A DNA stretch of 64,000 nt, taken from assembly GCA_000004985.1 (NCBI GenBank), contig GG738927.1; one strand, 5' to 3'. Each line of letters starts with the position of its first letter. Position 1 is the first letter of the stretch. The translations under genes were made by a program, and so were the position numbers. The notes below the pieces were generated by a model. The model made no database searches, had not been told where the DNA came from, and saw only the letters and a list, made by a program, of their open reading frames with translations. The stretch comes from Naegleria gruberi. Lineage: Eukaryota. Positions 10,074 through 46,744 of the stretch are shown piece by piece.

Positions 10074-11862
10074 ATGCAACAAGATTCAAGTAGTAACAGT
10101 TCTAATGATGAGAATAAATCTCCTCCACCAACATCATCATCAGCATTTGTCACATCATCATCAGAAGCTGGATTGGAGGCTAATTTATCACCAATTTCTT
10201 GTATTTGCTGTAGAAAGGCCCACAAACGTTGCGATCGAAAGTTTCCCTCATGTTCGAAATGCATTCAGAGAGGAGTTGATTGTTTTGTAGGTTTAATTTA
10301 AATTGTATATACTGATTATAAATTAAAGTATAATGAACCTAAAAAGAGAGGAAAAGCCTCGGAAACCTACAGACAAAAGAAGAGAATTAAACAAGATGGA
10401 ACTGAATTAAAGCAAATTGTTCATTACTATTACTCGTACATGGCAGGTGGTTATCCAATTATTGTCAAGGCAAAATTAGAATACTTTATAGATGAATATT
10501 TGACACAAATTGAAAATAATGATGAATTTACAGTTGAAAAGAATCAATATATTACCAGCGAGCAAGAATTGAATGCAATTTATTCATTCTTCTTGGCAAT
10601 CAAGGGTATTTATTTTCAATTGAATGCCAATTTACCAAAAGCATCTGAAACAATTAGTATGTGTGAAGAGTATTTGGGGAAATTGTTGACCAAATCAATG
10701 CAGTTCTACATTTATGCTGCATGTCAAATGGTGGCAGTTTATTATAGTGGAGCAGGGGATCTTTCAAAAGTGAGATTCTATGACACGATGGTGAATTATT
10801 ATTTGAATGGAAATGAGAAAACAGTTTTTGACAAGTATGAGGAGAATATGAGGAAGAGAATGACATGCCTTTCAAAATCATCAACTGATTTCTTGGATGA
10901 ATACTCTGGATTCTTTAAAAAGATGCCAACCTTTTTCGAACATTCAGTTGCCCGTAAGCTTCAGGATTTGTTACTTCCTGGAACTCTTGAATATTTACAG
11001 GTAGCTCCAAAAACATTAGAAGGTTATGCATTCTTCAAAAAGGTCACAGAATTTACATACAGAGTTATGGGGCAATATCATAACGATATTATTAAGGAAA
11101 TGAAGGATTGCCATACGAACGATTTTTTCAAATTCGAACAAGTGCACAAAACTATTATGTATTTTGGATTTCACCTGTACTATCTGAATGCAATACCCTA
11201 TATAACACCTCAACTTGAAGAAGTAGCTCTCAAAATAACAGTTTCCACTGAAAGTGAATATTTCAAGTAAGTTTAGTTGATTTGCAAATAATTTAACTCT
11301 CAAAAGCTACGCCATTCCAGAGGTGCTTATTTCAGTGAAAGGTGCAGCTCAAGTTCATTTAGACATTTGTAAAGAAATAGAGTCTGGAAAGAGACAAAAC
11401 AATTCTACACTTCAAACAGATGGAAAAATACTAACTTTGGATTATTATTCGGTGCTGGAAAAGGATGTCAATGCTCTTACATCGTTACAGAAAAAGTACC
11501 CAAACAGAGTGGCTGATCTGTGTGAAGATTTACTGGCAAACATGAGAAATTTATTAAGAGCTCACAATGAAAGACTGATAAGATTTTCCACACAGTTCAT
11601 TGAAGAAAATGATTTGGAACCAATTGCCAATAATGAACATTGTAACAGTGATTGTTATAGTGATCAATCCAATGATTTGACACGTTCAGATGAGACGGTT
11701 AATTGTACTGAAGGACCAGCAAAGTGGAATTCTCTCATTCACTATTTGGAAGCTATTGATGGAGAATTAGGCAATGTATCAGGCAATAACAGTACCACCG
11801 AAAATACAGATTTCATACCATCAAATGATAATGAGCTAGACCTTGATCAGTTCATAATTTAA
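10074..11862 (+). CDS. Zn(II)2Cys6 binuclear-cluster transcription factor, paralogue A; 3 exons join(10074..10286,10329..11266,11307..11862), 568 aa
   Basis: Exon 1 encodes CICCRKAHKRCDRKFPSCSKCIQRGVDC, which is CX2CX6CX6CX2CX6C. Donor GTAGGT at 10287 and acceptor AAAG|TATAATGAACCTAAAAAGAGAGGAAAAGCC at 10329. Exon 2 ends ...EYFK with GTAAGT donor in phase 2, and exon 3 starts at 11307 (YAIPEV...). Exon phases and total length (1707 nt) are consistent. Exon-intron positions are identical to paralogues B and C. Confidence 0.75.
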
Positions 11863-12105
11863 ATTTCTGAAGAACTTTATACTTCCTTAGCGGACGTAAA
11901 AACAACAATTTAGCAAAGATATGTGTGGAATGAATTACCCTTATAACCTCCTTAGTACTGTAGAGTTCTGCAACATTTAATAAAAAATTTCCACTTTCGC
12001 TTGGAAACCGGTTATTGATTTCATTTAAGCTATTCACACGTATAATAATAATCAAACCACAATCGAATTAAATAGCCACAGTTCCCGCCACAAATCCAAA
12101 AAAAA

Positions 12106-13251
12106 ATGACAGAACCAGCAGCCAAGAAGATGAAGATCACACCACAACAAGAACATTCCATCAACTCCATTCCAGATGATGTGTTTAGTCACAAGATTTT
12201 CCCATTCCTCTCCGGAAATGATTTATTTAACAATCAAAGATTGGTTTGTTCATCATGGAATAATCGGGTGCTTGCTACCAGATGTTCCATTAGAGTTTGT
12301 TTGACTGATGAAGAATCTATCCGAAAGTTTATTGCTAGTGCAGAGGGAGGTTTATTCAAGAATGTTGTTGGTCTTGTTTTGAGAGCAGAAGGTTTTGGAT
12401 CAACATCATTTGAAAAGATTGTTAATCTTGATTGGCCATGTTTGACAGCATTGGATGTGTCAGATAATGATATTGGCAGTGCTGGTATTGAACAATTATC
12501 GAAGGGTAATATTAAAGGACTCACCTCATTGAAGATATTTAACAATAATATTGGTGAGGAGGGTGCTAAATTTGTATTGAGTGGTAATTTGAGTGGATTG
12601 ACCACATTGAATTATCAAAGTGTGGCTAGAAAGGGACAAGATAAGTTTTTTGCCATGACTGATCACTTTTGTGGAGATACTCCTTTTACTGTACATAGTT
12701 TTGATAACAGTGATGAATTCACTGAATATATCTTTAAATATTACCTTGATTATTGGAAACACTATGGAAGTGACTCATTGGATCTTGATGATTATGAACA
12801 AGAGGATGATGAAGAACCAAATGAACCAATTTTGAGAGAAAAAGTTTATGCATTGACATTTGGCAAAATTGCTGACATGGCAGTTAATGAAGTTGGTGGA
12901 ATGGTTTTCAATGAATGTGAAAGAGAGAGTATTGTTGCTACCATCTATGGACAAGAGCTTACTGCAGAACTTTTGAGTAACTCTGATGAGTCAACTCCAT
13001 TTGTTATGGATATAAAATCTTCCTGTAACCATGAAACGATACAAATTATTGGAAAGTCCAAGTTTTTGAAACATGTTGCAGAATACTTGGGTGGTGAAGA
13101 TGAGGACGAAGATGAGCAAAGTGATGAAAAACTATTCGAAAGGATTTCTCAAAAGATTGGAGAAAATATTGCTTCTGATGATGGTGACGAATGCCTTGTA
13201 GCAGTTTGCATTGGTGAAGTTATCAATTGTGAATTTGTCTTACTCAAGTAA
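12106..13251 (+). CDS. F-box-like / RNI-type leucine-rich-repeat protein, 381 aa
   Basis: N-terminal IPDDVFSHKIFPFLSGNDLFNNQRLVCSSWNNRV (F-box-like LP..V...IF..L......R.VC..W). Followed by RNI-like LRRs (LDVSDNDIGSAGIEQLSKGNIKGLTSLKIFNNNIGEEGAKFV...). Acidic C-terminal tail. Confidence 0.6.
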   Translation: MTEPAAKKMKITPQQEHSINSIPDDVFSHKIFPFLSGNDLFNNQRLVCSSWNNRVLATRCSIRVCLTDEESIRKFIASAEGGLFKNVVGLVLRAEGFGSTSFEKIVNLDWPCLTALDVSDNDIGSAGIEQLSKGNIKGLTSLKIFNNNIGEEGAKFVLSGNLSGLTTLNYQSVARKGQDKFFAMTDHFCGDTPFTVHSFDNSDEFTEYIFKYYLDYWKHYGSDSLDLDDYEQEDDEEPNEPILREKVYALTFGKIADMAVNEVGGMVFNECERESIVATIYGQELTAELLSNSDESTPFVMDIKSSCNHETIQIIGKSKFLKHVAEYLGGEDEDEDEQSDEKLFERISQKIGENIASDDGDECLVAVCIGEVINCEFVLLK

Positions 13252-13287
13252 GAATCTAATAAATAATAATATCATTTATTGAACTAA

Positions 13288-14022
13288 TTACCACTGAATG
13301 ACTTCTGGATTTTCTGCTTGACCTTCCAAATTGAAAAAACCACCAGTGACACCATCATCCTTAATAAGTGCCATCCTGACAATAACTTTAGCACCTTCTT
13401 GTGGAGTCTTTGTTCCCTGATAACCATTTAATTCAGTGGCACAATAGCCAGGACAAGTGGCATTTACCTTAATGTTAAATTCTGCAAATTTTTGAGAGTA
13501 GATTATGGTTAACATGTTGAGAGCAGATTTGGTAATTGTATAAGTAGTGTACAATTTTTGAGGAGAGTTTGGTAATTGGGCAACTGCTAATGATCCAAGA
13601 GTTGATGAAACATTGACAATTCTTGGATGTTTGGATTGTTCCAGTAATTCCTTGAATTCATCCATAATGATAGCAACAGCAGCAACATTGACTGAATAAA
13701 TATCAAGATATGAATCTCTAAGAGATGGATCCTTCTTTGGTGATGAAGCAACAGCAGCATTATTAATCAAAATATCAATCTTTCCATATTTTTCCTTAAT
13801 TGTCTTTTTCAAATCAAAAATTGATTGATCTGATGCAAGATCAAGAGGTAAATATTCATAAGAGATTCCTTCTTCCTTCAATTGTGTAAATGCTTGTTCA
13901 TTTGGAGATCTAGCAGTTACAATAATATGAATTGACTCATTGTAAAACTTTTCCTTTCCCAATTGAAGAGCAACTTGCAAACCAATTCCTTTAGTACCTC
14001 CAGTGACTAATGCAATAACCAT
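13288..14022 (-). CDS. Short-chain dehydrogenase/reductase (classical SDR, carbonyl-reductase-like), about 244 aa
   Basis: MVIALVTGGTKGIGLQVALQL (TGxxxGxG Rossmann motif), NNAAV, catalytic YxxxK (YTITK). ORF begins upstream at 14070, but the Rossmann fold starts right after the internal Met at 14022. Confidence 0.75.
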   Translation of the reverse strand: MVIALVTGGTKGIGLQVALQLGKEKFYNESIHIIVTARSPNEQAFTQLKEEGISYEYLPLDLASDQSIFDLKKTIKEKYGKIDILINNAAVASSPKKDPSLRDSYLDIYSVNVAAVAIIMDEFKELLEQSKHPRIVNVSSTLGSLAVAQLPNSPQKLYTTYTITKSALNMLTIIYSQKFAEFNIKVNATCPGYCATELNGYQGTKTPQEGAKVIVRMALIKDDGVTGGFFNLEGQAENPEVIQW

Positions 14023-14492
14023 TTTTTTCAATTTTCTTTTTGTTCTTTTTGTTTTTATGAAACTAATCAAATTCTGACTTTCGTTTTATTTATACATGAA
14101 ATTTGTCCTTGTTGAATAGGATAAATTGATGCGCAAGCATTTTTTGGTTGTAAACTATATTATGTGCGCTTTGATGATAAAATTGAATGGATAATCAAAA
14201 CTGTAGTTGTTAGTTTTGTTTTGTTTACAAAAACTCAATTAGTTTCAGGTATTTCTAGTGAAATATTCAAGTTAAAAAACATGACAACAAAAAGTTGGCT
14301 CCTCCCAAATGGAGAATTAAACTAAATAAGCTCCACTAACTAAAACAGTTACCTAACCAAATACCCTCCCATCATTCACTTAAAAACCAACTTTTGCTTC
14401 ACCTTTCCTCTGTCCACAACCAAAACTTCAACTCGACCTCAAAATCTGTCAAGAAAACATTGACTTAAGAATCCCTCAATTTTACAAAAAAA

Positions 14493-16271
14493 ATGTCCTC
14501 AAGCACAACTTCATCCTCAGAGCAGTTATTACCACCATCAACATCATCTTTGACATCAACATCAGCAACAACAACATCATTATCCACAATCAGTTGTGAA
14601 TCTTGTCGACATTCCCATAAGAAATGCGATAGACAACTTCCTTCGTGTACTAAATGTTCAAAGAAGGGAATTGAATGTAATGTAAGCTTTGAAATAATAA
14701 TTAGCATATTCGAATATATATTTAATAAAAGTATTCGGAGCCTAAAAAGAGAGGAAAAGCCTCAGATGCCTATAAAAAGAATAAGAAACAAAAAACTGAT
14801 TTTCCTCATCAGAATCAAATTGCACAATCATCACATGAAGATTTAATTCAACAAGTGAGTGAATTTTACTTTACATTTGTGTGTTCGGGATATCCTGTGC
14901 TTGATAAGACGAAATTGGAATATTTCACGAATGAATATTTGACCAAGTTTGAGAATGGAGAACATGTTGAATTGATTGCTAATGATTTTATTCATTCAGA
15001 GGAGGAATTACAATTGCTCTATGTTTTATTCTTGTCAATGAAGGCAATTTATTATCAATTTCATTATGAATTGGATATTGCTGAAGAAATTATGAAGAAA
15101 TGTGAAAAGTTGCTGGGACAATATTTAACACAATCATTCAATTTCTATATTTATGCATCTTGTCAGTTGGTTGCTGTTTATTATAGTGGTATTGGTGATT
15201 TGTCAAGGCTTAAATTTTATGAAACTTTGGTGAATTTTTATTTAAATCATTTGACAGGAAATACTTTTGACTTGTATGAAAAGAATTTGGAAAGAAGAGC
15301 TGCTTTTGTTTCTGGTATCACTAATGATATGGCAACTGATGGTGTTTCATCATTTATTGAAAGAGTTCCAAAGATTTTCCAAGTCACAGTGGATCAAAAG
15401 CTAGACAATATTTTACTTCCTGGAACTTTGGAGTATATTCGTACAGCACCTGCCACTACTCAAAACTATGCCTTCTTCAGACAGGTGTTAGAGTTTGTGT
15501 TTAAAGTAATTGGTCAATTCAGAGCTGAATATTGTTCCAGGTTGACATTTTGCAACACAGAAACAGCATTGAAATTTGCACAAGTTAATAGACATTTGAT
15601 TTATTGTGGATTTCATATGCAATATCTCACAAGAATGCCAAGTATGGCAAATGAATTGGAAGAATTGGCTCTCAAAGTTTCTTGCATTACAGAATCCGAA
15701 TACTTCAGGTTAGTTTCAATAATCAATATATATATCTCACAGTTGAATCAGGTATTGCTCTGCTGAAATGATTGGTTGTGTAAAAACAGCTGCTGAAATA
15801 CATTTGCGTATCTGTAAACAAATTGAGAATGGAAGCAGAAGAAATAATGCACCTCTCATAACAACAACAGGAAAATCATTGAATATTGATTATTACGCGA
15901 TATTGGAAAAGGATTTGAATGCACTTACATGTATGGAAAAGAAATTCAAACGAGTTAGTATGGTGTGTGGAACTTTAATTCAGGAAATTAGAATTACATT
16001 ACAAAATCATTACAATATGCAAGTCAATACTTTAAATCTTGCCACTGCACAAGCTCTTCGATTACCTACCATCATTGCCCAACAACAGCAACATCAACAA
16101 CATCAGCAGCAACACACCTCTCCACAAAGTTCGCACGAGGGTGATGATAAATGGATGTCCCTTATTAAATATTTGGAAGCAATTAAGGAGAGAATTGGAA
16201 ATCAACCTTCTGAAGAACCAGAAGAGACCGATGATGATGCCTTCTTAGATTTTGATTCACTTACCAATTAG
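14493..16271 (+). CDS. Zn(II)2Cys6 binuclear-cluster transcription factor, paralogue B; join(14493..14681,14732..15708,15752..16271), 561 aa
   Basis: Exon 1 has CESCRHSHKKCDRQLPSCTKCSKKGIEC (CX2CX6CX6CX2CX6C). Donor GTAAGC at 14682. Acceptor before TATTCGGAGCCTAAAAAGAGAGGAAAAGCC at 14732. Exon 2 ends TACTTCAG|GTTAGT. Exon 3 starts at 15752. Lengths sum to 1686 nt, in frame. C-terminal WMSLIKYLEAI motif is shared with A and C. Confidence 0.75.
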
Positions 16272-16293
16272 AGAATTCAATATTAAATTATAT

Positions 16294-17844
16294 TTATTTC
16301 TTAAGAACTTGTAAAAGAGATTCGAATACTTTTTCATCAAGAACAATTCCAATGTGAGAAGTGTTGAAAAACCTATGTTGATACACGGCATGTTTTTGAT
16401 ATTTTGCAAACTCATCACAAATTTGGAGAGAATAGGCAGGAACTGTTCCATCCCCATCTTCAATATTTAACACTTTCATTCCTTTCCACAAGTCATCAAA
16501 GTCCAAATCATGCAACTCCTTAGAACCCGAATATTCCATATGAGTAATAGTATGAACACCATAACCATAAAAGCAGTGAGTGGTTACATTTGGAGCGGCA
16601 ATCTTGTTATTGGAATAGGCAGAAAATTCATGATTGTAAATGTTAATGCCATTTGCAATTTGGGCATCTGAAAAGTATCTTTCAATATCTGGAAGATTAA
16701 TTCTATAACTTGGTCCAGACACATTATTTCTATTATAGGTAAAGAATGGGTAATTGTAAGGGAAATAATTTGGTGACATGAACAATGGAGAAGCATATTG
16801 GCGAACAATTTTTCTAGCATTAGAGAGCTCAAAGGTTGGAATTCCCCAATTTGTACCAGTTACATATAAAATCTGAATTGAATGTGAAAATTATTGTAAA
16901 GAATATTGTAACAAATCAATTGAAAAACTTACCAAAGCAAGTGGAGAACCATCAAAAGCACCTGCCATTGGAATGAAATTATCAATGAATTTCTCCTTCC
17001 ATGGTTGATCCACAAAAGTAGCCAAAAAGTATTGCAAGAATGGACCACCCATCGAATGTCCCAAAAGTGAAACTTTCTTATTTCCATTAATCTTGTAAGT
17101 GTCTTCAACTAATTCTTTCAAATTAAAGAAATCACCGCCAATAGAATTGTTTCTACTGGCCCATTCTCTCACACCCAATCTCCAATCCATTGTTAACCCT
17201 CTCAAACTCTTTCCAATTTGATAATTTCCATTCTGTACCAAATAATCAGATAAACTCTTCATGTAATAAGCCTTACTTTCGAATTGTGCTAAAACTGATT
17301 CTAAACCACCCATTCCACCAATATCCTTTCCAAAAATCTTTACACCTTGATCTTTTTGTCTCAATAAACCATCTTTCAATTCAATAGACATGTCATGAAC
17401 GAAACAATCTTCAGTAAAGTATGGAACTAGCTCTTCCAAAGAAATCCAAATTTGGAATGGATCAGTTGACTTTTCACACCACCAATGAGGCTCCTTCACA
17501 GCATTATTTCTCTGAGACATGAGTGCTGAACCACCCAATCCTCCCACAATAATCAATGGTGAGAAATTTCCATTCACATCTGCACCTTTCATCTTGCCTG
17601 AAATTCTTGATGACTTTACAGCTGACTTTTGAGCAATGAATTTCTCATCTTGATACATGGAAAACAATTGACCAATCTCTACATTATCTCTCTTAACCAA
17701 TTTTCGAAGATTTTCTTCCTTGATCGGAATGGAAAATCTTCCCATCATTTTGTTATTCATTGCTTGATGACTTTTGACCATCATTACCATGAACATGATG
17801 CAAATGGACAATACACAACAATAACCAATCCTCACACCTTGCAT
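16294..17844 (-). CDS. LCAT-family (lecithin:cholesterol acyltransferase / PDAT-like) lipase-acyltransferase; complement(join(16294..16872,16933..17844)), about 496 aa
   Basis: GHSMGG nucleophile elbow (LLGHSMGGPFLQYF). Downstream DGDGTV and His-containing C-terminal exon typical of the LCAT family (PF02450). Intron has GTAAGT donor and CAG acceptor, 60 nt, phase 0. Likely start MQGVRIGYCCVLSICIMFMVMMV gives an N-terminal membrane anchor. The upstream in-frame ORF extension to 18225 overlaps the neighbouring UGT 3' end and is probably not coding. Confidence 0.7.
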
Positions 17845-18107
17845 GTTGCTAATTTTCCTGTTATTAGTATTGTGTGTAGTGAACAACGGAGTGTCACGAT
17901 TTACTTCTATTTTTTTCTTGGATGATAATTGGAAGGAAGGACAGCAAATTGTTGGTTGATTTGAAAGTGGAAACCCGATGGAAGGACGATTGATCCATCC
18001 GGATAATGAGGAGTCTGTTTTAGTGAAACTCCCAACTGAAATCAATGACCATTCTTGGAAGATGATTAAGCATGATGATTTTGTTAAACATTTTAAGATT
18101 TTGTTTA

Positions 18108-19841
18108 TTATTCGTTCTTTTGCTTTGATTTTGAATAGCAGCAAATGAGTTTTGACATTTTGATAGTGAAATAAATGATAATACCATAGAATAGAATGAT
18201 ATCCAGACAATAGAATTGCCACCATGTCAAGTGCTTATCTGCAACTCCCCATGATAAATCACCATCCACTTCAGAGACTAATTCCACAATCTCAGCAGCT
18301 CTGCTCACTCCTCCAGATCTTCTTGTCAGTGCCTTAGCATGTCTAGCGGCTGTTTTGTACTTGTCACTTGTCTGTTCATCATATAAAAGCTCATGAACTG
18401 CCTTTGAGATGCTATTGATATTCCAATCTGAGGATTCCTTCTTTGAATGGTAAATGGAACGACCCACTTTGAATTCCTCAATGGCATGTGAAACTCTCAT
18501 TTGATCATAGGCAAATGGGAATCCAATTAGTAATTTTCCAAAATAGAGAGCTTCATTGACACTATTAGCTCCGCAATGTGTGAAGAAAATCTTGACCTTT
18601 TCCAAAGATAGTAATCCCTTTTGAGGAACGAATCCTTTCAATATTTTGAATCTCTTTGAATTAGTTTTGAACAAATCATGGAATGAAAGTCTTTCAAATA
18701 TTTCCATATTGAGATTTCCAAGTGCCATCAAGATTGAAATTCTTGGATTTTCATTTAAGGTAATTTGAAGTCCTTCCAATAACTTTTTCATTCCATTTTC
18801 ATCCAAAACCATTGTAGATCCGAGAACCATTAACATGATATCTTCCTGCTCATCAATCCAATTGAAAAGATCTCCCATTCCAGAACTCGAATCATTGGAA
18901 TGAGCTAATTTTCTTAGAGTTTCAATTTCATCATTAATTTGTTTCTCATTCATGAATGGACCCACAAGATGAGCATTGAAATATTGAGTATTTCCAGAGG
19001 CAAATTCAAATCCATAACTGGAAGTTTGAATTAGGGCACATTGGCTATCACTTGCAATGATTTCATTCATCTCAAAATATTCACCCAAATTTTCCATGAA
19101 TGCTTTGGCATAGAATACATCCTGAATGGCAACGAATGGCATATAGAAACGATTAGGATATTTAGTGAAATAATCCAATGAATTGGCAATGATTCCAGGA
19201 TAGTGCAACATGAATTGTCTGAAAAAGGCAGTGAAAATTTTCGTACATGGAATTTTGCTTCCTGCAATGATGGATTGAATGGAAATTAAGGTAAAATCAA
19301 TAACTGCTTGGTCAAATAAGGTCTGTGAAGGATCATTTCTAATTCTCAAATATCTCTTAATTCCAGGTTTTGCAATTTTTGATAATTTTTGTAAACGTTC
19401 CTCAAATGAAATGACATTTTCAATTTCTCCGCTTTCCTTCCAAACTTCCACAATTTCCAATTTTGAAATCATTAATCGTTCATAGGGAATCATCATTCTA
19501 TCAAATGTAAACTTGAATTGATCCAAAATATCCATATCAATCATTTTACTCATTTCTCTATGAAATTCTTCAAAATCCTCAACTTGAGTAAAGAAAACAT
19601 CCTTAGATTCCATTAAAGAAACATGAATCTTTCTCTCTGACTCCGAAATATTCAGTTTTGAATGCCATTTCTTCATTCTTGAATCTGATAACAATCCCAT
19701 TTTGGAATTCAATATTGTAATGTTTGAAATTGTCAATGATTGAGAAAGTTTTTCAACTAATTCAACCTTTGGTCGGATGTGACCGGGAAATGGATGAGAT
19801 AGAATCAATATATTCTTATTATTCATCATTATTTCTATCAA
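18108..19841 (-). CDS. Family 1 UDP-glycosyltransferase (UGT) with C-terminal transmembrane segment, 577 aa
   Basis: N-terminal ILILSHPFPGHIRP (GT1 N-domain motif). C-terminal donor-binding signature FVPQKGLLSLEKVKIFFTHCGANSVNEALYFGKLLIGFPFAYDQMRVSHAIEE (W/F-PQ...L.H.....FVTHCG.NS..E....G.P.....P...DQ..NA pattern). Hydrophobic tail WWQFYCLDIILFYGIIIYFTI. Confidence 0.75.
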   Translation of the reverse strand: MIEIMMNNKNILILSHPFPGHIRPKVELVEKLSQSLTISNITILNSKMGLLSDSRMKKWHSKLNISESERKIHVSLMESKDVFFTQVEDFEEFHREMSKMIDMDILDQFKFTFDRMMIPYERLMISKLEIVEVWKESGEIENVISFEERLQKLSKIAKPGIKRYLRIRNDPSQTLFDQAVIDFTLISIQSIIAGSKIPCTKIFTAFFRQFMLHYPGIIANSLDYFTKYPNRFYMPFVAIQDVFYAKAFMENLGEYFEMNEIIASDSQCALIQTSSYGFEFASGNTQYFNAHLVGPFMNEKQINDEIETLRKLAHSNDSSSGMGDLFNWIDEQEDIMLMVLGSTMVLDENGMKKLLEGLQITLNENPRISILMALGNLNMEIFERLSFHDLFKTNSKRFKILKGFVPQKGLLSLEKVKIFFTHCGANSVNEALYFGKLLIGFPFAYDQMRVSHAIEEFKVGRSIYHSKKESSDWNINSISKAVHELLYDEQTSDKYKTAARHAKALTRRSGGVSRAAEIVELVSEVDGDLSWGVADKHLTWWQFYCLDIILFYGIIIYFTIKMSKLICCYSKSKQKNE

Positions 19842-20904
19842 ATATTTATTAATATTTAATAAATATTAAATTAATACTATTTACCATTCTTGCAATTTAT
19901 ATGTGAAATTAAAGCTAATAGCAAAAGGAATGTAATAAGCATTCCGATTGCTTTCGTAGGTAAATTATAGGTCCTCATGTAATGCTATTTTTTTGAAAAT
20001 TTCTTTTTGATTGAAAACGAGAACCAACAATAACTATTCAATACCATGTCGTTCAATTACTAGAAATGGAATAATTGAGAAATGTGAGATTAATCCACCA
20101 TTTGAATTTAGGTTTCATGTCCATTAAGAAATGAGAAGGATGTGGACTATATATCTGGTTTCTTAGTAATAACCAAGATATGCATTGGGATGTGAACTAT
20201 TGACTGATTTCTGCATATGTGTCTACACATTTCTACACATGCATCAGTTGATCATGATTTTTTTTTTGAATACATTCTTCAAATTACAACAGGTAGCATC
20301 CATGCACATGTGCAGATGTTTCTTCACTCCACTTGAAACATGTTGTTTTGAATGTTGAAAAGCAATGCAGCAACAACGTACTACTGATTGAAAACAACAC
20401 TCACCGTATGAATAACCTCCAATGATACATATGAAAATTGATACAACAACCGTAATAATCAAATACTGTTCCTTATGGACATTACTGTCGATCAAAACAA
20501 CACCTTATTCAAATCCAATTAAATATTGAAAGCTATTCTTATTCAAAAGCAAATGAATGATCAAGACAACACACTTCAATAAATTGGCACTTTATAAATG
20601 GTTGACCTTAATTGTGAGATACTGCTTTCCTTTCTGAGTAAACGAGTGCAAAACTCTTTAAAAAACACATGTGTTTATTTGTTCTTTCAGAGCGTGAGAA
20701 AATAGCATGTTTGTAACATGAGATGTGGAATGACATCATGTGAATGTGTAGACATTACTGGTTGTGTTTAATTTAACTTTCACATGATGTCATTCCAAAA
20801 CACATTCCAAATGCCTCTGGATTCAGAAACATAGCTAAATAAAATGTTCACTAATTGATTTCATAAAGCACGTTTATTAATAAACGTGATGTCAAAGGAA
20901 TAAA

Positions 20905-22582
20905 TTAAAAGTTTTTGTTTTGAGTAAAAGTTCTAACCATTTCCAACACATTCTTTCCTTGATTCATTGGAGACATATGTCCGGCTTTGTTGACCAAAAT
21001 AGTTACCAAATTATCATATTGATGAGAGTAACCAACAATTTGACCGTCAACCTTCCATGGCTTTCTACCAAGACCCAAATCTTGATTGAAAGAACTAGCT
21101 CCATGCCAGTTCATTGATTGAATCCAATTGGTAGCTCCAACGGAATTAACTATCCAATCGTACTGACCATTATATAACAATACACGCACCTTTCTTTCTG
21201 GGCTATCAAGTAAAGCTTCAACCTTATATTTGACAGACTTGGCAATATCAGCCAAGAGATTATTCCAAACATCATTGTTTTCATCGTAATATTTGACACC
21301 TTCTGTGTGCATGAGCTTTTTGGTTTCTGGCAAGTTTACATATTGGACGTAGGCAGAAATGTCTGGATCTCCATAACTTCTAATATCGTAAACATTGACA
21401 CCACCAGCACATTGATTAATTACAAAGTCTGTGAGATTATTGTTAACATTCATAACATCGACAAATCTCTTTTCCTTGATAAGTTTAACAATTTGATCTT
21501 GATAATTCTTAACAACTGCTCTTTGAGGTCCATCAATCAAACCAGTGGCAAAAGAATAAGTATCATAACTGGCAAATTGAATTTCTGGATCAGTTAAACC
21601 ATCCTAAAATTGATTTAGTTTACAAATTTGAAATAATAAAAACCTACACCAATACCAATACCGGCCAAATTGAATGGGAAACCAGAATTCATAATACTAT
21701 TTTATGAATCAATGTAAATTCCAAATTCCAATATTTATAAACTTACTTGTAAGCAATAGATGGAACTATTTCAATGTGAATAATTTAAATTTCATAAAAT
21801 ACTTACTATATTTTCCAGCATAACTTTCACCAAACAAGTACAATTCATTACCTCTATATTTTCTAGCAAAGTCCAATTGGAAGAATTTTTCCAAAAAGAT
21901 ATGCACCTCACTAGCAACTCTATCTTCACTGTGAACATAACCTGGAGATTGAACATGTGAGAAACCGCTTCCCAATGGATTATCAAGCCAAATCTTTTGA
22001 CAGTTTGGTGAATTAGCTCAAAAATATTGAAATGACATACCATGTGATAATCATAATTCCAAGTTGTTGGATTCTTGACAAGTTTCAAAGTTTTTGGATC
22101 TACAAGATATGGTCCATTTTCAACAAACAATCCAAATTCACTTCCGGCACCAGGTCCTCCTTGGAACCAAATAATAACTTTGGTCAATCAGCAAAATTTC
22201 ATCATACACATTTTGAATAATTAATTATTAAATGATCAATCACTTGTGAAAATCTAAACATACTTGGACTATCAGCCTTTCCACTCAAAGCTTCACTAAA
22301 AACATAATACATTTGTCCCTTGTATGTCGAATTTACTTCAATAAAACCACTAAATTCAAATGGATTATTATCCATATCAACCTTGACATAATCTTCAGGC
22401 GAAATCTTCATTGGAAGAGGTGCTGGAGCAAGTCTCCTCCTTCCAGCTATCTTCTTTCCTCTCAACAAATCCACAAATAAATTAGATGTTGGAGGAGCCT
22501 TTCCTTCCGAGCCTTCCAACATCATCATGAACATTAGCGCAGAAAAGCACAACAATAAAACGATCAAGTAATTGGCGCGCAT
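20905..22582 (-). CDS. Serine carboxypeptidase, peptidase family S10 (SCPL-like), multi-exon (at least 6 exons) with signal peptide
   Basis: Exon ORFs on the minus strand carry the full S10 motif set. 22582 downward: signal peptide MRANYLIVLLLCFSALMFM..., YSGFIEVNSTYKGQMYYVFSEAL. 22187 downward: WFQGGPGAGSEFGLFVENGPY. About 21975 downward: DNPLGSGFSHV...LYLFGESYAGKY (active-site Ser). Small exons IPSIAYK and IMNSGFPFNLAGIGIG|DGLTDP. Terminal exon 21540..20905 ends NKAGHMSPMNQGKNVLEMVRTF (catalytic His). Introns are 50-70 nt GTA(A/T)GT...AG. Exact exon bounds not all resolved. Confidence 0.75.
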
Positions 22583-23021
22583 TTTTTTTTGTGTTTTTTT
22601 TAATTTTCAAATTTTTATTCGTTTAAACTCCTGAATGGATTTAATGAGGAGGAGTTTTGTGGGGAATTTTTGGAGTTATTTTGATGAGAAGGTGGCAGGT
22701 TTTTAAACTCCTGTGTTGGGACAGAGATGGATGAAATATTGATTTTGCTTGAATTGATTTTTATCAAAACACTTTACAATCAATGAAAATAGTTAAAGAA
22801 ATAGAATCTCAATATCCAAACACATTAATAACACAATTTTTCAACTAAAAACAATGGAGTCCATGCTGTTCGGTACCCATTCTTCCCTCAGAGTGAGTAC
22901 TTTCAGTCTCCTTCCATAGTAAATTATATGTTCGTACATATTGGAGGAGATTTTAAATACTCTCATTCCAAATGAGTATGAACAATAAAAGAGTCGTTGT
23001 TATTAAATCTCAAAAAAGAAA

Positions 23022-24794
23022 ATGCAACAAACTACATCAACTCTAATTACTGAATTAGCATCCAACTCCGAAAATGATGAAAATTTAAATTCTTTGAATG
23101 AAAAACAAAATGATAGAGTTGAAAATTTATCGAATTTATCACCAATTTCGTGTATTTGCTGTAGAAAGGCACATAAAAAGTGTGATAGACAACTGCCAAC
23201 TTGTTCAAAATGTATTCAGAGAGGAATTGCATGTGCTGTACGTTTACAACACTTTAAACACTTTAAAATATTTAAATGTTTAATATGAATTGAATATCTG
23301 AATAGTATAATGAACCTAAAAAGAGAGGAAAGGCAGCAGAGGCTTACCAACAGCGAAAAAAGAGAAAGGAACAAGATTTAGATGAGCTAGCTGCCAATGT
23401 CATTCATTATTTCTATACTTTCATAAGTGGAGGACATCCTGTCATTAGAAAACCCAAATTTGAATATTTTGTGAATCATTACTTGGCCCAATTGGAAAAT
23501 AACAATGAATTTGTATTAATTCCCAATGATTACATATCGAATATTGAAGAATTACAATGTATCTATTTATTTTACTTATCCATCAAGTCAATTTATTATC
23601 AATTGAATACAGAATTGGAATTGGCAAGTGACAGTATGAAAAATTGTGAGGAACTTTATTCAAAATTGGTTACAAAATCATTCATGAACTTTTATTTCAA
23701 TGCTGCTTGTCAATTTATTTCATTATATTATAGTGGAATTGGAGATTTTGTAAAAGTGAGATTTTACATTGCCATTGTAAAGTTTTATTTGAGTGAGAGG
23801 AAGGAATTTACTGATTTATATGAAAAGAATTTGGAGAGAAAGATTGTTTTTCAAAACAAGTCATCAAATGATCTCATTGATGGATTTTCTGCATTTATAG
23901 AAAATATGCCAAAAATATTTGAAGTGACAGTTGGTCAAAATTTGGAAAATTTACTCATTCCTGGGGCTTTGGAGTATTTGAGAACGGCTTCAGTCACAAC
24001 AGAGAATTACTGCTTTTTCAAACAGGTTGTGGATTTTGTTTTTAAAGTAGTTGGACAGTACAGAGTGGATTTATTCAAACAAATGATTGATTGTCATTCT
24101 GAAACATTCTTCAAATTTGAAAAACTGCACAGAAATTTAATTTATTATGGATTCCAGTTGTTTTTCCTGAGTCGATTACCTGCATTTTCACCTCAACTGG
24201 AAGAGGTTGCTCTGAAATTATCATGCTTGACAGAACATGAATATTTCAAGTATGTTTCAACAATCATTTAATTAACCAAATGATTAACGTTTATATCGTG
24301 ACAGGTATTCTGTTCCTGAGGTGATACCATGTGTGAGTGAGTGTGCAAAAATTCATTTACAAGTCATTCGACAAATTGAATCAAGAAAACGAGCAAATAA
24401 TATGCCATTCATAACTTCAAATGGAAAGGTTCTGACCATTGATTATTATTCGATACTGGAACGAGATTATAATGCTCTCAAATCACTAGAGAAACGATAT
24501 CCCCGAGTGAGGAATTCTTTTGGATCTTTGATCAATGAAATTCAAACAATTTTGAATAATCATGATAACCAAGGTGAGATGGCTCCGATCGAACCAAATC
24601 CCATTCTTTTCAATAAGCAAACCATTGATGATTCTTCGGATTTTGTTTCATCACCCAATTCCAACATATTGGCTGAAGATTTGAGATGGAAATCTTTATT
24701 GAAATATTTAGAAGCCATCAGGGAAAGATTGGGTGATGACAGTGGAAGTAGCAGTGGAGATTCTAGTTTTGATTTTGATCAATTTTTTGATTAG
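23022..24794 (+). CDS. Zn(II)2Cys6 binuclear-cluster transcription factor, paralogue C; join(23022..23237,23306..24249,24305..24794), 549 aa
   Basis: Exon 1 has CICCRKAHKKCDRQLPTCSKCIQRGIAC. Donor GTACGT at 23238. Acceptor AATAG|TATAATGAACCTAAAAAGAGAGGAAAGGC at 23306. Exon 2 ends ...EYFK with GTATGT donor in phase 2. Exon 3 from 24305 (YSVPEV...). Lengths sum to 1650 nt, in frame. C-terminal WKSLLKYLEAI...FDFDQFFD motif. Confidence 0.75.
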
Positions 24795-25043
24795 CATGTT
24801 CCGTTATCATTGTGATCCTGAACATGTTCATGTAATCATCATGTTTTCGATCAAGATATTCAAAAGAAGGAATATAAATTTGTTTATTATGTATATTATT
24901 TTAATGTTATTTTGTATATTATGTATATTATTGTTTGTTGAATTGTATATTATGTATATTGTTGTTTTGTTAATATTATGTACATTAGTTGATTAAGGTT
25001 TTAGGAATTTGTAAATTTAAAGATAATTTAAGAAGAGGAAAAC

Positions 25044-25976
25044 TCATTCCATCCACTTCCATATATGCAAGGAAGATTCTCCTGGATACTTCATTCTCTT
25101 TCTACTCTTCTTCTCTTTAAATCTACTCTTGTTGATCAATTCAATCTTTTTGCTATCTTCTGAAGTAACAAGGACTGATTTTCTTTGTTTGAATACATGT
25201 TCTGGTTTTACAATCTTGTTAATATTATATACATTAGTTGATTGAGTTTTTAACTGAATCCTAATATTTGATGCAGCATCCACTGACTTTGGAGAGCTCA
25301 ATTCTTCACCTGATTGATTAGATGCAGATTCATAGGAAGCATCCGTATTAAACGGACTAGTAGTACTCCTGGTTGATAATGTAGATGTAACACTGCTGGA
25401 TGTTGATGTTGGACTACAACTTCCCTTAATGTTACATTCATTGAACAAATCTGTCCAAGATGTTAACATGTCATTAACATCCAATCTTAACATTGGTTGT
25501 TGTTGGCTTTCAATGTCAACAGATGGTTCAATGTTCAGCATGGAATCATCATGTTCCTTCTCTTCTGGGAGGATAACGGATTGGAATGGATAATAAGAGT
25601 TGAGGAATTGTTGTTGAATGGATGAGTAATCAATAGATGCATCTACAGGAATAACGGATGGTGAAGTTACATTCATCATGGCATGAACATTCATATCACT
25701 TAATGAATTTACATGATTAAGGGAATTCATTAAGGTGGTGGAGTAGGCCGTTGGTGATTGTGGACTAACGGCTGAGCTTGATGTGCAAGTGGTCGTCAAG
25801 CCGTGATGAAGATAATTAAATGTACCTGCTGATGCTGCTATTGGGAGAGTAAGAGGTGTAGTAGTAGGGGAGGTTGGAGGAGTTGGAAGGAAACATGATG
25901 ATTGTGCTGCTACTGCCATTTGGTTTAATAGTAGGGCAAAAGAATCATGAGGAAGCACATAAATAATAGGATTCAT
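25044..25976 (-). CDS. Hypothetical Ser/Thr/Pro-rich protein with basic C-terminal K-x-PGES...W-x-W motif (paralogue of 34646..35161)
   Basis: 310-aa ORF. Low-complexity S/T/P-rich body. Conserved RLDVNDMLTSW segment and C-terminus KKSRKRMKYPGESSLHIWKWME, both echoed in the gene at 34646..35161 (RLDIEDLLREY; RRRKSKLPGESEFKLWTWI). Confidence 0.45.
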   Translation of the reverse strand: MNPIIYVLPHDSFALLLNQMAVAAQSSCFLPTPPTSPTTTPLTLPIAASAGTFNYLHHGLTTTCTSSSAVSPQSPTAYSTTLMNSLNHVNSLSDMNVHAMMNVTSPSVIPVDASIDYSSIQQQFLNSYYPFQSVILPEEKEHDDSMLNIEPSVDIESQQQPMLRLDVNDMLTSWTDLFNECNIKGSCSPTSTSSSVTSTLSTRSTTSPFNTDASYESASNQSGEELSSPKSVDAASNIRIQLKTQSTNVYNINKIVKPEHVFKQRKSVLVTSEDSKKIELINKSRFKEKKSRKRMKYPGESSLHIWKWME

Positions 25977-31197: not shown

Positions 31198-32257
31198 ATG
31201 AGCACACTTAGAGCACTATTATTAGGAGTCTATGGTTATTGGAATTATACAAAAGCTGGATTCGAGAGAAGACTCGGAAGCACCATATCAGATGAATCTG
31301 TAAAGAATGTTGGAACAATGACAAACAAAGTATGCATTGTTACTGGAGCAAATTCTGGTTTAGGTTAGTATTGTTGTTAACTGTTATTATTAACAAGTTG
31401 TATGATTAGGTTATCAGACATCTATTGATTTGGCCAAAAGAGGTTGTACATTGCATTTACTTTGTAGAAATGAAGAAAGAGGAAAGGAGGCAGTTCAAAA
31501 TATCATCAAGGAATCGAATAATGAACAAGTTTATTTACACATTGTGGATATGTCCTCTGTGAAGAGCATTAAACAATTCTTGGATAGTCAAATTGGCAAT
31601 ACAATTCCTAAACTCAATATTCTAGTTAATAATGCTGGAGCTATTGTGGAAAGGATTGATCCAGTGACTAAAACTGCTCAAGTTACCTTGAATGAGAATG
31701 GATATGAAAACAATTTCCTTGTAAATACTATTGGACCATATTACTTGACTAGAGAATTAATTAATTTCATGGAAGAGTCTGCCAAGAAAGACAAGGATGC
31801 AAGTAGAGTTATTTTTGTATCATCTGGTGGAATGCTTACTTCTAGATTGGATTTGAATAATTTACAAAATCAAGGATTTACTGGAGCTTCTGCTTATGCA
31901 CATTGCAAACGTCAATCATGTTGCATTACAGAAGAATGGGCCAAATTACATGACAAATCTCTAATAACATTCAATTCATGCCACCCTGGTTGGGTCGATA
32001 CTCCAGGTTTATCAATATCTCTTCCAACTTTCTATGAGAAATTGAAAGGAAATTTGAGAACATTGGAGCAAGGAGCTGATTGTCAACTCTATTTGGCTGT
32101 CAGTGATGAAGTGAAGGAATCTACAGGTCTCTTTTTCGAAGATCGTAAACCTGTCACTCCTCATTTCACTCTCGCCTTTACTCAAGAATCAGAACAAGAA
32201 CGTAAAGAACTCATCAAGAAGTGTGACTCCATTATCCAAGACTTGATGCTCAAATAA
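31198..32257 (+). CDS. Short-chain dehydrogenase/reductase (retinol-dehydrogenase / DHRS12-like); join(31198..31363,31410..32257), 337 aa
   Basis: Exon 1 ...VCIVTGANSGLG split by a 46-nt intron (GTTAGT...TTAG) in phase 1, continuing GYQTSIDLAKRGCTLHLLCRNEERGKEAV. Further on NNAG and YAHCK (catalytic YxxxK). Start taken at the second in-frame ATG (MSTLRALLL). Confidence 0.75.
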
Positions 32258-34645: not shown

Positions 34646-35161
34646 ATGACTCTACAAGAGCCACAAGAAGAGAGCCAAATCACTTTTACACACACTCAAT
34701 TACCATCGATGATGAACCATGCTGCAAACAGCAGTGGAATACAATTGAGGTTAGATATTGAGGATCTGTTAAGGGAGTATGTAGCCTTAATGCAGGCATC
34801 TGCTCCAATTGCTTCTACTAATTCTACCATGGAACAGTTCTTCCACCAATCGAACAGCCCTTCTCATCACAGTAATTTATCAAATGATATAGATAATGTG
34901 TATTACTGTAAAACAGTAAGCCCAAATAATTCTGTAAATGTCTCTGAACAGCAGGTTACCAATACTATTACACTTCAACAAGACATTGTTCAAGATCGTG
35001 AGCAACAAGCAAAGAAGGGAAATTCCAAAAGGAAAAGTTCCGTTGATGATAAGCCAAATTATTCCAAATCCAAGGTAGGCAAAACACGAAGAAGAAAGAG
35101 CAAACTTCCAGGTGAATCAGAATTTAAATTATGGACTTGGATTGGAGAGAAGAGTTTATAG
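34646..35161 (+). CDS. Hypothetical protein, paralogue of 25044..25976, ending in basic K-LPGES...W-x-W motif
   Basis: 171-aa ORF. Shares RLDIEDLL and C-terminal KTRRRKSKLPGESEFKLWTWIGEKSL with the minus-strand gene at 25 kb. Confidence 0.45.
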   Translation: MTLQEPQEESQITFTHTQLPSMMNHAANSSGIQLRLDIEDLLREYVALMQASAPIASTNSTMEQFFHQSNSPSHHSNLSNDIDNVYYCKTVSPNNSVNVSEQQVTNTITLQQDIVQDREQQAKKGNSKRKSSVDDKPNYSKSKVGKTRRRKSKLPGESEFKLWTWIGEKSL

Positions 35162-44783: not shown

Positions 44784-44852
44784 TTTTTTAAGGTGTTTCG
44801 ATAGTAAACACACAAAATAAAGTTCAAATAATATTTAGACAATTGGGTATTA

Positions 44853-45025
44853 ANNNNNNNNNNNNNNNNNNNNNNNNNNNNNNNNNNNNNNNNNNNNNNN
44901 NNNNNNNNNNNNNNNNNNNNNNNNNNNNNNNNNNNNNNNNNNNNNNNNNNNNNNNNNNNNNNNNNNNNNNNNNNNNNNNNNNNNNNNNNNNNNNNNNNNN
45001 NNNNNNNNNNNNNNNNNNNNNNNNN
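44853..45025. other. Assembly gap (173-nt run of N)
   Basis: Contiguous N characters. The ORF-track entries 44824..45114, 44850..45167 and the first ~60 residues of 44843..46744 are artefacts of translating N. Confidence 0.95.
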
Positions 45026-46744
45026 AAGAGTATAACTGTAAAAGGAAACAATGTCTTGTCCAGTGTTTTGAACTTTGTGCCTGGAAAAACTTCATCAGAA
45101 AGTGGAAGTAGCATTGAGTTTGTAAAAACATGGCTCTATTTTTGTAAATCAACACAAACTTTCTCATTGGTCAAACCAGAAGGTCAGCACATTCTCTTTC
45201 CAAGTATTAAAAAGTGGTTCACCGTCATGGATTTCAAGCAAATTGAAATGGAAGGTGAAGAATTCAAGGTAGAGCAATTATTGAAAGAATTCTTGATATT
45301 ACTTTTCAAGTCTTGCACTTCATTCCATAAAAAAACAGAAAAGGGAATGCTAAAGAATGTTGTTGTTGCCAATTGTTTCATTTTCACAGTACCCACTGAC
45401 ACTGATCTTGAAGCAAAGAAGAGATTTAAAAGAGTTGTAAAACAAGTTATTGATGAAACATGCAAAACTTCAAGACCAATTGAAATGGATGATATCTATG
45501 TTGTTGAGGAATATTCATTGCTGTTGCGTTTGAATTCTGACAAACCGAGTACCTTGATTATTGATATCGGCCATTTGACATGTGATGCACTTGTTAAGAA
45601 AAATGATGAAATACTTCAAGTGAATGGAGAAACAAGAGGAGTTTCTCTCATCCATGAAAAGATTAAGCAGTATGATAGTAACTTCGATCCAATGGAAGTC
45701 ATGAAAAATTTGTTCGACTATAGAAGTTCAGCAGAGTTACCTGAAAAATACGAAGAGTTGAAAACAATATTCGAGGATGGTGTGAAGGAAATTGCAGAGC
45801 CCATTCTTGATCTTATTCTTCAACATGGTTGCACAGATGTTGTGATTTATGGTGCATTTATTTCTCACGACTATTTTAGAAAGTTAATTGAGAAGTATGT
45901 GACCAACATAGAATTGAGCGAGTATGTCAACAGACAATTCAATTATCTCAAAGATGAATTCAAGAATCCAATAAGGACTCCTTTCGAAGTAAGTTGTAAT
46001 CCAGATGGTGGAAGTTCATTATTGAATGGTGCTAGATGTTTAATTGAGGAAGCACTTCTTAATCGTCAAGGTTTACATCAATTAGAATATGATAGAAAGG
46101 AGCTACCTTGTATATCTCGTATTGGATTCTGCTCATTCAACGAAAAGAAGGGGTGTCTTTGTTTTGATATTGTTTGTTCACTTTTTGATGCCTACGTTAA
46201 ACAAGATACCGAGGTTTTCATCATCAAGTTCAGAAATACCATTGATGCTTCAAAGGTTGAAAACAATGAAATCACAAAGCACAACTACAAAAGTGTTGGA
46301 ATTATGGAATTTGAAAGATTTTGCGCTCTAGAAATCAAGTTTAAACCAGACCTTAAATTATTCAAAAAGGGGTTTTTCCTTCATGGAATTGTAGGTGGAG
46401 ATAACCTGAAAATACTTCTTCATTATCAAGAAGCCAACAAACAGTACTTTTGCCATGCTTTCGACATTCCAAGAACAGGAAGAAAGGATAGAATTCCTGT
46501 TAATGATATTGGAAAGGTTTTCGAAAAGGAAAATGATTGGAATACTTGGTATGGAGCTCCTTATTACATTGAGATGAATATTGAGGACAAAGATAAGTAT
46601 AGCACCATTAGGTCATCTTACTTAAACCAAATTATTAGAGGAAGAGACTGGAAATTGTTCAAAGAATTGGAAGGTGGTGAATTGACGTATCTTCCTGAGG
46701 AATCATTAGTAAATGAAGTTCAGAAAAAGAAGAGACAAAAGTAG
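45026..46744 (+). CDS. Divergent Hsp70/actin-like ATPase-fold protein; 5' end lost in the gap (partial)
   Basis: Downstream of the gap the frame reads ...LIIDIGHLTCDALV (compare Hsp70 phosphate-2 motif DLGGGTFD), VVIYGAFISHDYFRKLIEKYV (compare adenosine motif VLVGGSTRIP), NPDGGSSLLNGARCLIEEA (compare NPDEAVA.GAA). This is followed by a ~230-aa non-Hsp70 C-terminal region. The N-terminal phosphate-1 motif would lie in or before the gap. Confidence 0.5.
   Translation, partial: KSITVKGNNVLSSVLNFVPGKTSSESGSSIEFVKTWLYFCKSTQTFSLVKPEGQHILFPSIKKWFTVMDFKQIEMEGEEFKVEQLLKEFLILLFKSCTSFHKKTEKGMLKNVVVANCFIFTVPTDTDLEAKKRFKRVVKQVIDETCKTSRPIEMDDIYVVEEYSLLLRLNSDKPSTLIIDIGHLTCDALVKKNDEILQVNGETRGVSLIHEKIKQYDSNFDPMEVMKNLFDYRSSAELPEKYEELKTIFEDGVKEIAEPILDLILQHGCTDVVIYGAFISHDYFRKLIEKYVTNIELSEYVNRQFNYLKDEFKNPIRTPFEVSCNPDGGSSLLNGARCLIEEALLNRQGLHQLEYDRKELPCISRIGFCSFNEKKGCLCFDIVCSLFDAYVKQDTEVFIIKFRNTIDASKVENNEITKHNYKSVGIMEFERFCALEIKFKPDLKLFKKGFFLHGIVGGDNLKILLHYQEANKQYFCHAFDIPRTGRKDRIPVNDIGKVFEKENDWNTWYGAPYYIEMNIEDKDKYSTIRSSYLNQIIRGRDWKLFKELEGGELTYLPEESLVNEVQKKKRQK

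Follow-up and report, generated by a model that had tools for sequence, protein, structure and literature searches.

Three genes for Zn2Cys6 regulators stand on a 64,000-nucleotide stretch of Naegleria gruberi DNA (contig GG738927.1; the whole 64-kb stretch is called the window hereafter), interleaved with genes for a reductase, a lipase, a glycosyltransferase and a serine carboxypeptidase, and the question raised by this locus is whether regulators and enzymes belong together functionally or whether a transcription factor (TF) family has expanded locally among unrelated neighbours. A preliminary description had preferred the former and taken the block for a candidate specialised-metabolism gene cluster. 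We find it probable instead that this is an ordinary, old local expansion with incidental neighbours, in which case the locus would hold three old, locally duplicated members of a Zn2Cys6 subfamily seemingly confined to the N. gruberi lineage, and the enzyme genes between them would be ordinary neighbours in a gene-dense genome rather than a pathway. As it stands this amounts to a routine lineage-specific TF family expansion of little consequence.

The regulator genes, here A, B and C, are all on the + strand and were found with the ends previously proposed for them, each consisting of three exons with homologous intron positions. An exact-sequence look-up showed the spliced models of A and B to be identical to the N. 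gruberi proteins XP_002669383 and XP_002669385 and placed the models of A, B and the LRR, SDR, UDP-glycosyltransferase (UGT) and S10 genes on the same 174-kb scaffold of N. gruberi NEG-M, and the translation of C corresponds to an N. gruberi 'predicted protein' of 549 amino acids (aa) with 100% identity and coverage. The locus tags run consecutively across the block from NAEGRDRAFT_75637 to 75643, the block ending around 75644, and the G+C content of the window is about 33%. All six introns of the three genes have GT..AG ends. Intron 1 is in phase 0 directly 3' of the zinc cluster and measures 42, 50 and 68 nt in A, B and C, so that the earlier range of 43-68 nt was right at its upper end but slightly too high at its lower one, and intron 2 (40, 43 and 55 nt, respectively) is in phase 2 after the residues EYF. 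The codon split by intron 2 encodes N in A, R in B and K in C, and the exon 2 ending EYF(K/R) described before accordingly holds for B and C but not for A. Exon 2 invariably begins with Y(N/S)EPKKRGKA, and the C-terminal motif of exon 3, given previously as W-x-SLI-x-YLEAI, is indeed present but better written W-x-SL(I/L)-x-YLEAI, since C reads W-K-SLL-K-YLEAI.

Translated in six frames, the 64 kb contain the cysteine spacing CX2CX6CX6CX2CX6C at exactly three places, one in each regulator gene; it conforms to the general pattern CX2CX6CX5-12CX2CX6-8C of Gal4-type zinc clusters, and the Pfam family Zn_clus (PF00172) matches all three proteins with 31-35 bits against a gathering cutoff of 21 (E 1e-7 to 1e-8; 1.3e-7 for A and 1.6e-8 for B), while no Pfam family besides Zn_clus was matched by them in the Pfam scan. 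Reading frames, canonical splice sites and the six cysteines are intact in A, B and C, which are 42-48% identical in pairwise amino-acid comparison and 60-80% identical in DNA. The zinc-cluster exons of A and C (10182-10295 and 23133-23246) agree at 80% of DNA positions over 114 nt as compared to 67-73% for other repeated gene segments, for which strong purifying selection on the part that encodes the DNA-binding module, or else a gene-conversion tract of some age, could be responsible. Just downstream of C there are furthermore three tandem copies of a 31-nt AT-rich unit (24873-24966).

How the three genes relate to one another is best seen against their family. An exhaustive HMMER search with the exon-wise alignment of A, B and C as query returned 710 proteins at E <= 1e-3 and 28 at E <= 1e-30; the weaker matches cover the zinc cluster only, and about 50 representatives also span the long non-DNA-binding region. 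Members that could be named belong to N. gruberi, where a dozen or more further genes are spread over seven or more scaffolds, and to N. fowleri, N. lovaniensis and Willaertia magna. When full-length C and the exon 2 alignment were used in a word-index homologue search, only the query and one metagenome fragment were returned; A and B are represented among the 90% clusters by short fragments, and metagenome scans with the exon 2 alignment and with the UGT gave no relatives. Neighbour joining over the helical region (367 trimmed columns) unites A, B and C in one clade in 100 of 100 bootstraps together with L001, an orthologue of B on a metagenome contig, and they are thereby mutually closest among at least 15 N. 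gruberi family members. Their sister group consists of N. gruberi 73164, 73231, 73199 and EFC42060 as well as a metagenome contig, and the labelled proteins of N. fowleri, N. lovaniensis and Willaertia all fall outside the clade, several of them pairing one-to-one with other N. gruberi genes. L001 is 57% identical to B as against 42-47% to A and C, and an orthologue of C on a 1-kb metagenome contig (L008) is 78% and 52% identical to C over two aligned exons. Since L001 is closer to B than to the other two, the duplications must be older than that species split, and judging from these sequences they are old, predate at least the splits from L001 and L008, and form part of an expansion that took place on the side of N. 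gruberi.

Zn_clus is the largest TF family of these amoebae, accounting for 78 genes of 243 TFs in N. gruberi and for 56-58 in N. fowleri (PMC8296547, Additional files 4 and 5, Table S3). The clade of A, B and C and its sister paralogues are without counterparts among the labelled N. fowleri and N. lovaniensis proteins, and may explain part of that difference. The family being so numerous, a zinc-cluster gene near an enzyme gene is in N. gruberi no mark of a metabolic cluster, whereas in Aspergillus it can be one.

The mutual relationship within the clade and the common strand and intron positions support the notion, already put forward in the preliminary description, that A, B and C arose by local duplication. 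Genome-wide only about 0.1 eight-gene windows with at least three Zn_clus genes are expected by chance, and the paralogy of the three genes likewise means that their grouping is not fortuitous. They resemble lineage-specific tandem TF arrays in being monophyletic, on one strand and alike in intron positions and phases, and in that arrays of the same family are found elsewhere, but they differ from such arrays in that their duplications are old and in that they are spaced rather than arranged head to tail, two unrelated genes lying between A and B and three between B and C. The repeats detected within the locus by DNA and translated self-comparison are TF coding sequence only. Since self-comparison with tblastx and tblastn did not detect remnants of an SDR, lipase, UGT, S10 or LRR gene next to any other TF copy, the interleaved genes were not carried along when the TF genes duplicated.

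The arrays found elsewhere are devoid of enzyme neighbours at two loci. In N. fowleri (L003, 10001-14802) FDP41_010721, a protein of the same family with 826 aa, is encoded next to a second Zn_clus gene (639 aa), and the two are surrounded by genes of the DOCK, calpain-like and Sec7 kinds. An 8.8-kb metagenome contig of the Joint Genome Institute (L007, 1-4808; sample 3300002220) carries three head-to-tail family copies in 4.8 kb with nothing between them. In N. gruberi itself EFC42060 and EFC42063 are found on one scaffold with accessions three apart.

Each regulator can be divided into five parts, namely a disordered Ser/Asn-rich N-terminus, the Gal4-type six-cysteine zinc cluster encoded by exon 1, the basic linker EPKKRGKA, an all-helical domain of about 400 residues encoded by exons 2 and 3, and a short, conserved acidic and hydrophobic C-terminal tail (LDLDQFII, FLDFDSL, FDFDQFFD) reminiscent of activation motifs. 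In the models the helical domain resembles the fungal middle homology region as seen in Cep3, to which it is only 5-10% identical in sequence, and neither Fungal_trans (PF04082), Fungal_trans_2 (PF11951) nor any other family-wide Pfam entry matched among 37 family members, even at E <= 1. What A, B and C contain thus looks like a middle homology region by predicted fold, but not by sequence. The Gal4 cysteine spacing with Zn_clus above its gathering threshold, the basic linker after the cluster and the acidic and hydrophobic C-terminus are shared with the fungal Gal4/Cep3 proteins, whereas the Naegleria proteins differ from these in the missing Fungal_trans match, in their low identity to Cep3, in that no clear coiled-coil dimerisation element is visible, and in that their host is a heterolobosean amoeba and not a fungus. 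By analogy of architecture, DNA binding would fall to the zinc cluster, control of activity or of partner binding to the helical domain and activation of transcription to the C-terminal tail, with targets that probably lie mostly elsewhere in the genome. Should the likeness of fold hold, a complete 'fungal' zinc-cluster architecture would exist in Heterolobosea, which bears on the origin of the family, and the largest TF family of Naegleria, to which the pathogen N. fowleri belongs, would become accessible from its structure.

Between the regulators, Pfam matches bear out the five genes that had been reported, i.e. those of an LRR protein, a classical SDR, an LCAT-family lipase, a GT1 UGT and a six-exon S10 carboxypeptidase (Table 1), except that for the first, originally labelled F-box/LRR, it is the LRR part of the label that is verified.

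Table 1. Regulator genes, interleaved genes and divergent intergenic regions of the block (positions in the window).
Feature	Position	Strand	Details
Zn2Cys6 regulator A	10074-11862	+	exons 10074-10286, 10329-11266, 11307-11862; 568 aa; NAEGRDRAFT_75637
LRR protein	12106-13251	+	75638; 381 aa; LRR_6 E 4e-8; exact match XP_002669384
Classical SDR, CBR1-like	13288-14022	-	75639; 244 aa; adh_short E 2e-34; head-to-head with B
SDR/B divergent intergenic region	14023-14492		470 bp; no CGG or CCG triplet
Zn2Cys6 regulator B	14493-16271	+	exons 14493-14681, 14732-15708, 15752-16271; 561 aa; NAEGRDRAFT_75640
LCAT/LPLA2-family lipase	16294-17844	-	496 aa (model); PF02450 E 3.5e-38; one 60-nt intron
GT1 UGT	18108-19829	-	75642; 573 aa; PF00201 E 3e-12; exact match XP_002669418
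S10 serine carboxypeptidase	20905-22582	-	75643; 469 aa; six exons; PF00450 E 2e-83; identical to XP_002669419; head-to-head with C
S10/C divergent intergenic region	22583-23021		439 bp; single CGG/CCG triplet at 22871
Zn2Cys6 regulator C	23022-24794	+	exons 23022-23237, 23306-24249, 24305-24794; 549 aa

The four enzymes retain their catalytic motifs in translation (GESYAG...GHM in S10, GHSMGG in the lipase, TGxxxGxG and YxxxK in the SDR, HCGxxS...DQ in the UGT), and S10, the lipase and the SDR fall into widespread clades (CPVL-type S10, LPLA2/LCAT and CBR1-type SDR). Among the best PDB relatives of the SDR, which also resembles related reductases of plants, are an alcohol dehydrogenase, carbonyl reductase 1 and salutaridine reductase, each with E near 1e-24, those of the lipase are the lysosomal PLA2G15 (2e-28) and LCAT (2e-27), and the UGT matches PDB UGTs by its C-terminal donor-binding half alone (best E 2e-11). 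The two-exon model of the lipase differs from the exact NCBI product. Hydrophobic, signal-like N-termini are seen in S10 and in the lipase, where hydrophobicity is maximal at residue 6, the UGT ends in a C-terminal membrane segment or anchor, and the SDR, predicted to be soluble, has neither signal nor membrane segment, so the enzyme products are predicted to reside in different compartments. The closest relatives of S10 are Naegleria and Willaertia proteins, and its named relatives beyond Heterolobosea are mostly of the CPVL type or 'carboxypeptidase Y/C' (animals, Capsaspora, Anaeramoeba, Pelomyxa), with SCPL48/SCPL50-like plant proteins matching more weakly and ranking lower. An analogy with the plant SCPL acyltransferases and the glucose esters made by UGTs was considered in view of the S10 gene being located next to a GT1 UGT gene, but it was rejected given the CPVL-type affinities that the ranked matches, as distinct from a formal tree, point to, and the neighbours of S10 in other Naegleria are likewise not UGT genes but those of a GH25 lysozyme and a small GTPase. 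The 1.06-kb stretch between S10 and UGT is without annotated gene and includes, about 100-190 bp 3' of the S10 stop, an inverted repeat (20718-20805) with 30-nt arms that are 87% complementary and a 28-nt loop.

Had the block been a functional unit it might be expected to travel together in related genomes, a question that the preliminary description had raised, and for this we compared loci centred on S10 with 10-kb flanks, using tblastn with all eight block proteins. The expectation was not borne out at the S10 loci of N. lovaniensis, N. fowleri, Willaertia or metagenome contigs. In N. lovaniensis C9374_001777 (L004; 71% identity) the S10 gene is accompanied by F-box, GH25, Arf/Ras-like and PX genes, N. 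lovaniensis C9374_003916 (L005) and N. fowleri FDP41_011292 (L006) are mutually syntenic with formin, RCC1-like and ABC transporter genes, and the S10 gene of Willaertia (L011) is found in yet another neighbourhood. Two metagenome contigs share the arrangement of L004, the shorter one (L010) showing GTPase and S10 only. Of the eight block genes tblastn detected S10 alone at these six loci (L004, L005, L006, L009, L010 and L011), and no homologue of the TF, UGT, LCAT or SDR genes was found within 10 kb of it. Furthermore, the LCAT gene of the N. gruberi window ends 22 bp after B, but in L001 the 750 bp that follow the B orthologue contain no LCAT homologue. It should be mentioned that N. gruberi was excluded from the synteny analysis of a pangenome study on account of its distance (PMC9928731), and that distance from the compared genomes weakens our synteny evidence as well. 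As an observation in its own right, the genes of the GH25 lysozyme and the Arf/Ras-like GTPase precede S10 at L004 (7613-11752) and L009 (1661-5901), and GTPase and S10 are found at L010 (526-3572); this GH25-S10 microsynteny, which is absent from the N. gruberi window, joins two putative phagosomal hydrolases.

The promoters of the block likewise offer little in favour of common control. Zn2Cys6 proteins typically recognise CGG half-sites. Pairs of the type CGG-N-CCG are few in the window and absent from the block promoters, and neither CGG-N(0-20)-CCG nor the reverse arrangement nor direct CGG repeats are enriched in intergenic regions. In addition, all 7-10-mers with at least two G/C were compared between six upstream regions, and none reached the sharing threshold of four regions for 7-8-mers or three for 9-10-mers. 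The lack of shared sites argues weakly against local control by A, B and C, whose binding motif may differ from the CGG sites tested.

With this in hand the possible relations between regulators and enzymes can be weighed. According to one of them, at least one of the three regulators controls the SDR, UGT, LCAT-like and S10 genes as a unit, forming a metabolic, detoxification or digestive module that would serve either in a xenobiotic response (carbonyl reductase and UGT) or as a phagosomal hydrolase set. Carbonyl reductase (CBR)-type reductases and UGTs work in successive phases of xenobiotic metabolism, and the retained catalytic motifs as well as the head-to-head pairs SDR/B and S10/C agree with such a module, as does the fact that, apart from the TFs, four of five block genes encode enzymes against five of about 22 genes in the rest of the window, although this nominal enrichment (hypergeometric p = 0.03) is post hoc in a region chosen for the property. 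However, no polyketide synthase (PKS), nonribosomal peptide synthetase (NRPS), terpene synthase or other scaffold-forming enzyme was found when the open reading frames (ORFs) and Pfam matches of all 64 kb were surveyed, the enzymes differ in predicted compartment and were not duplicated along with the TFs, neither shared k-mers nor paired CGG sites were found in their upstream regions (that of SDR/B being without any CGG), the block is kept neither around S10 nor downstream of the B orthologue in the loci compared, and enzyme proximity says little about a general-purpose TF family of the genus. A unit of this kind is in our view rather improbable. The specialised-metabolism cluster in the narrower sense fares no better, since the enzymes belong to widespread clades, the neighbourhoods of S10 differ with one of them being itself conserved, neither a core enzyme nor a common promoter motif was found, arrays of the TF family exist elsewhere without enzyme neighbours, and the B orthologue has no LCAT gene downstream; among these results are two of the outcomes that the preliminary description had itself named as telling against a cluster, which is nonetheless to be regarded as unsupported rather than disproved. 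A more modest coupling in cis, with SDR/B and S10/C each co-expressed from a bidirectional promoter but without any 15-kb module or pathway, is somewhat less improbable than a unit but still unlikely. Bidirectional promoters often yield correlated expression in compact eukaryotic genomes and the two divergent regions are short (470 and 439 bp), but they have no sequence in common, head-to-head pairs are often expected by chance in a dense genome, and the S10 homologues of other species are without a TF partner.

It might also be argued that the copies are collapsed or mis-assembled alleles or pseudogenes, the draft assembly having gaps of which one, a run of N near 44850-45030, is in the window. 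This explanation was rejected as having practically no probability, since the copies are far too divergent at both the protein and the DNA level, since their frames, splice sites and six cysteines are intact, and since separate B-like (L001) and C-like (L008) orthologues are present in independent metagenome assemblies. The preferred explanation, an old local expansion among incidental neighbours, is not without its own difficulties. What weighs against it is the enzyme enrichment just mentioned, the divergent promoter of about 450 bp that B and C each share with an enzyme gene, the weakness of absent synteny as evidence when the compared genomes are so distant, and the fact that A, B and C diverged long ago and yet still lie within 15 kb of one another, which could reflect constraint.

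Fungal secondary-metabolite clusters with an in-cluster Zn2Cys6 regulator, such as the aflatoxin cluster with AflR, are among the known systems closest to the block. The Naegleria block is like these in that Zn2Cys6 genes occur among those of redox, glycosyl-transfer and hydrolase or acyl-transfer enzymes, some of them with divergent promoters, but unlike them it contains no PKS, NRPS, terpene synthase or other core enzyme, it has three paralogous regulators rather than one, no common sites were found in its promoters, its enzymes are of widespread hydrolase and reductase clades, and it is not conserved in relatives. That it nevertheless represents a real heterolobosean module of co-regulated enzymes under in-cluster Zn2Cys6 regulators, organised in the fungal style outside fungi and plants, we consider very improbable; candidates for its role would be a response to xenobiotics or prey toxins in which the CBR-like reductase acts together with the UGT, or a route for tailoring lipids and glycosides. 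A true module would mean that a metabolic gene cluster with resident regulators is described for the first time in this eukaryotic supergroup, a literature search having found no Naegleria-encoded biosynthetic gene cluster. The block genes are not named in the supplements of PMC9035749, PMC8296547 and PMC10802493, which were consulted for expression and identifiers.

The remainder of the window contains genes for Sec15, Sec31, citrate synthase, a second SDR, a trypsin-like peptidase, a ThiF-family protein, an alpha/beta hydrolase, an aquaporin, F-box proteins and unknowns, and neither Rfam families nor tRNA genes were found in the locus. The second SDR (31430-32257, + strand; adh_short E 8e-17) is located 7 kb beyond the block and is not matched by the first in tblastn at E <= 1e-4. 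The run of N representing an assembly gap (about 44850-45030) falls within a long ORF at 44843-46744. Finally, two Ser/Thr-rich ORFs without Pfam match, at 25044-25976 on the - strand and 34646-35161 on the + strand, have in common a C-terminal basic motif of approximately the form K-x-R-(K/R)-R-x-K-x-PGES-x3-(I/L)W-x-W (13 of 29 residues identical, E 1e-5) and may constitute a small lineage-specific family.

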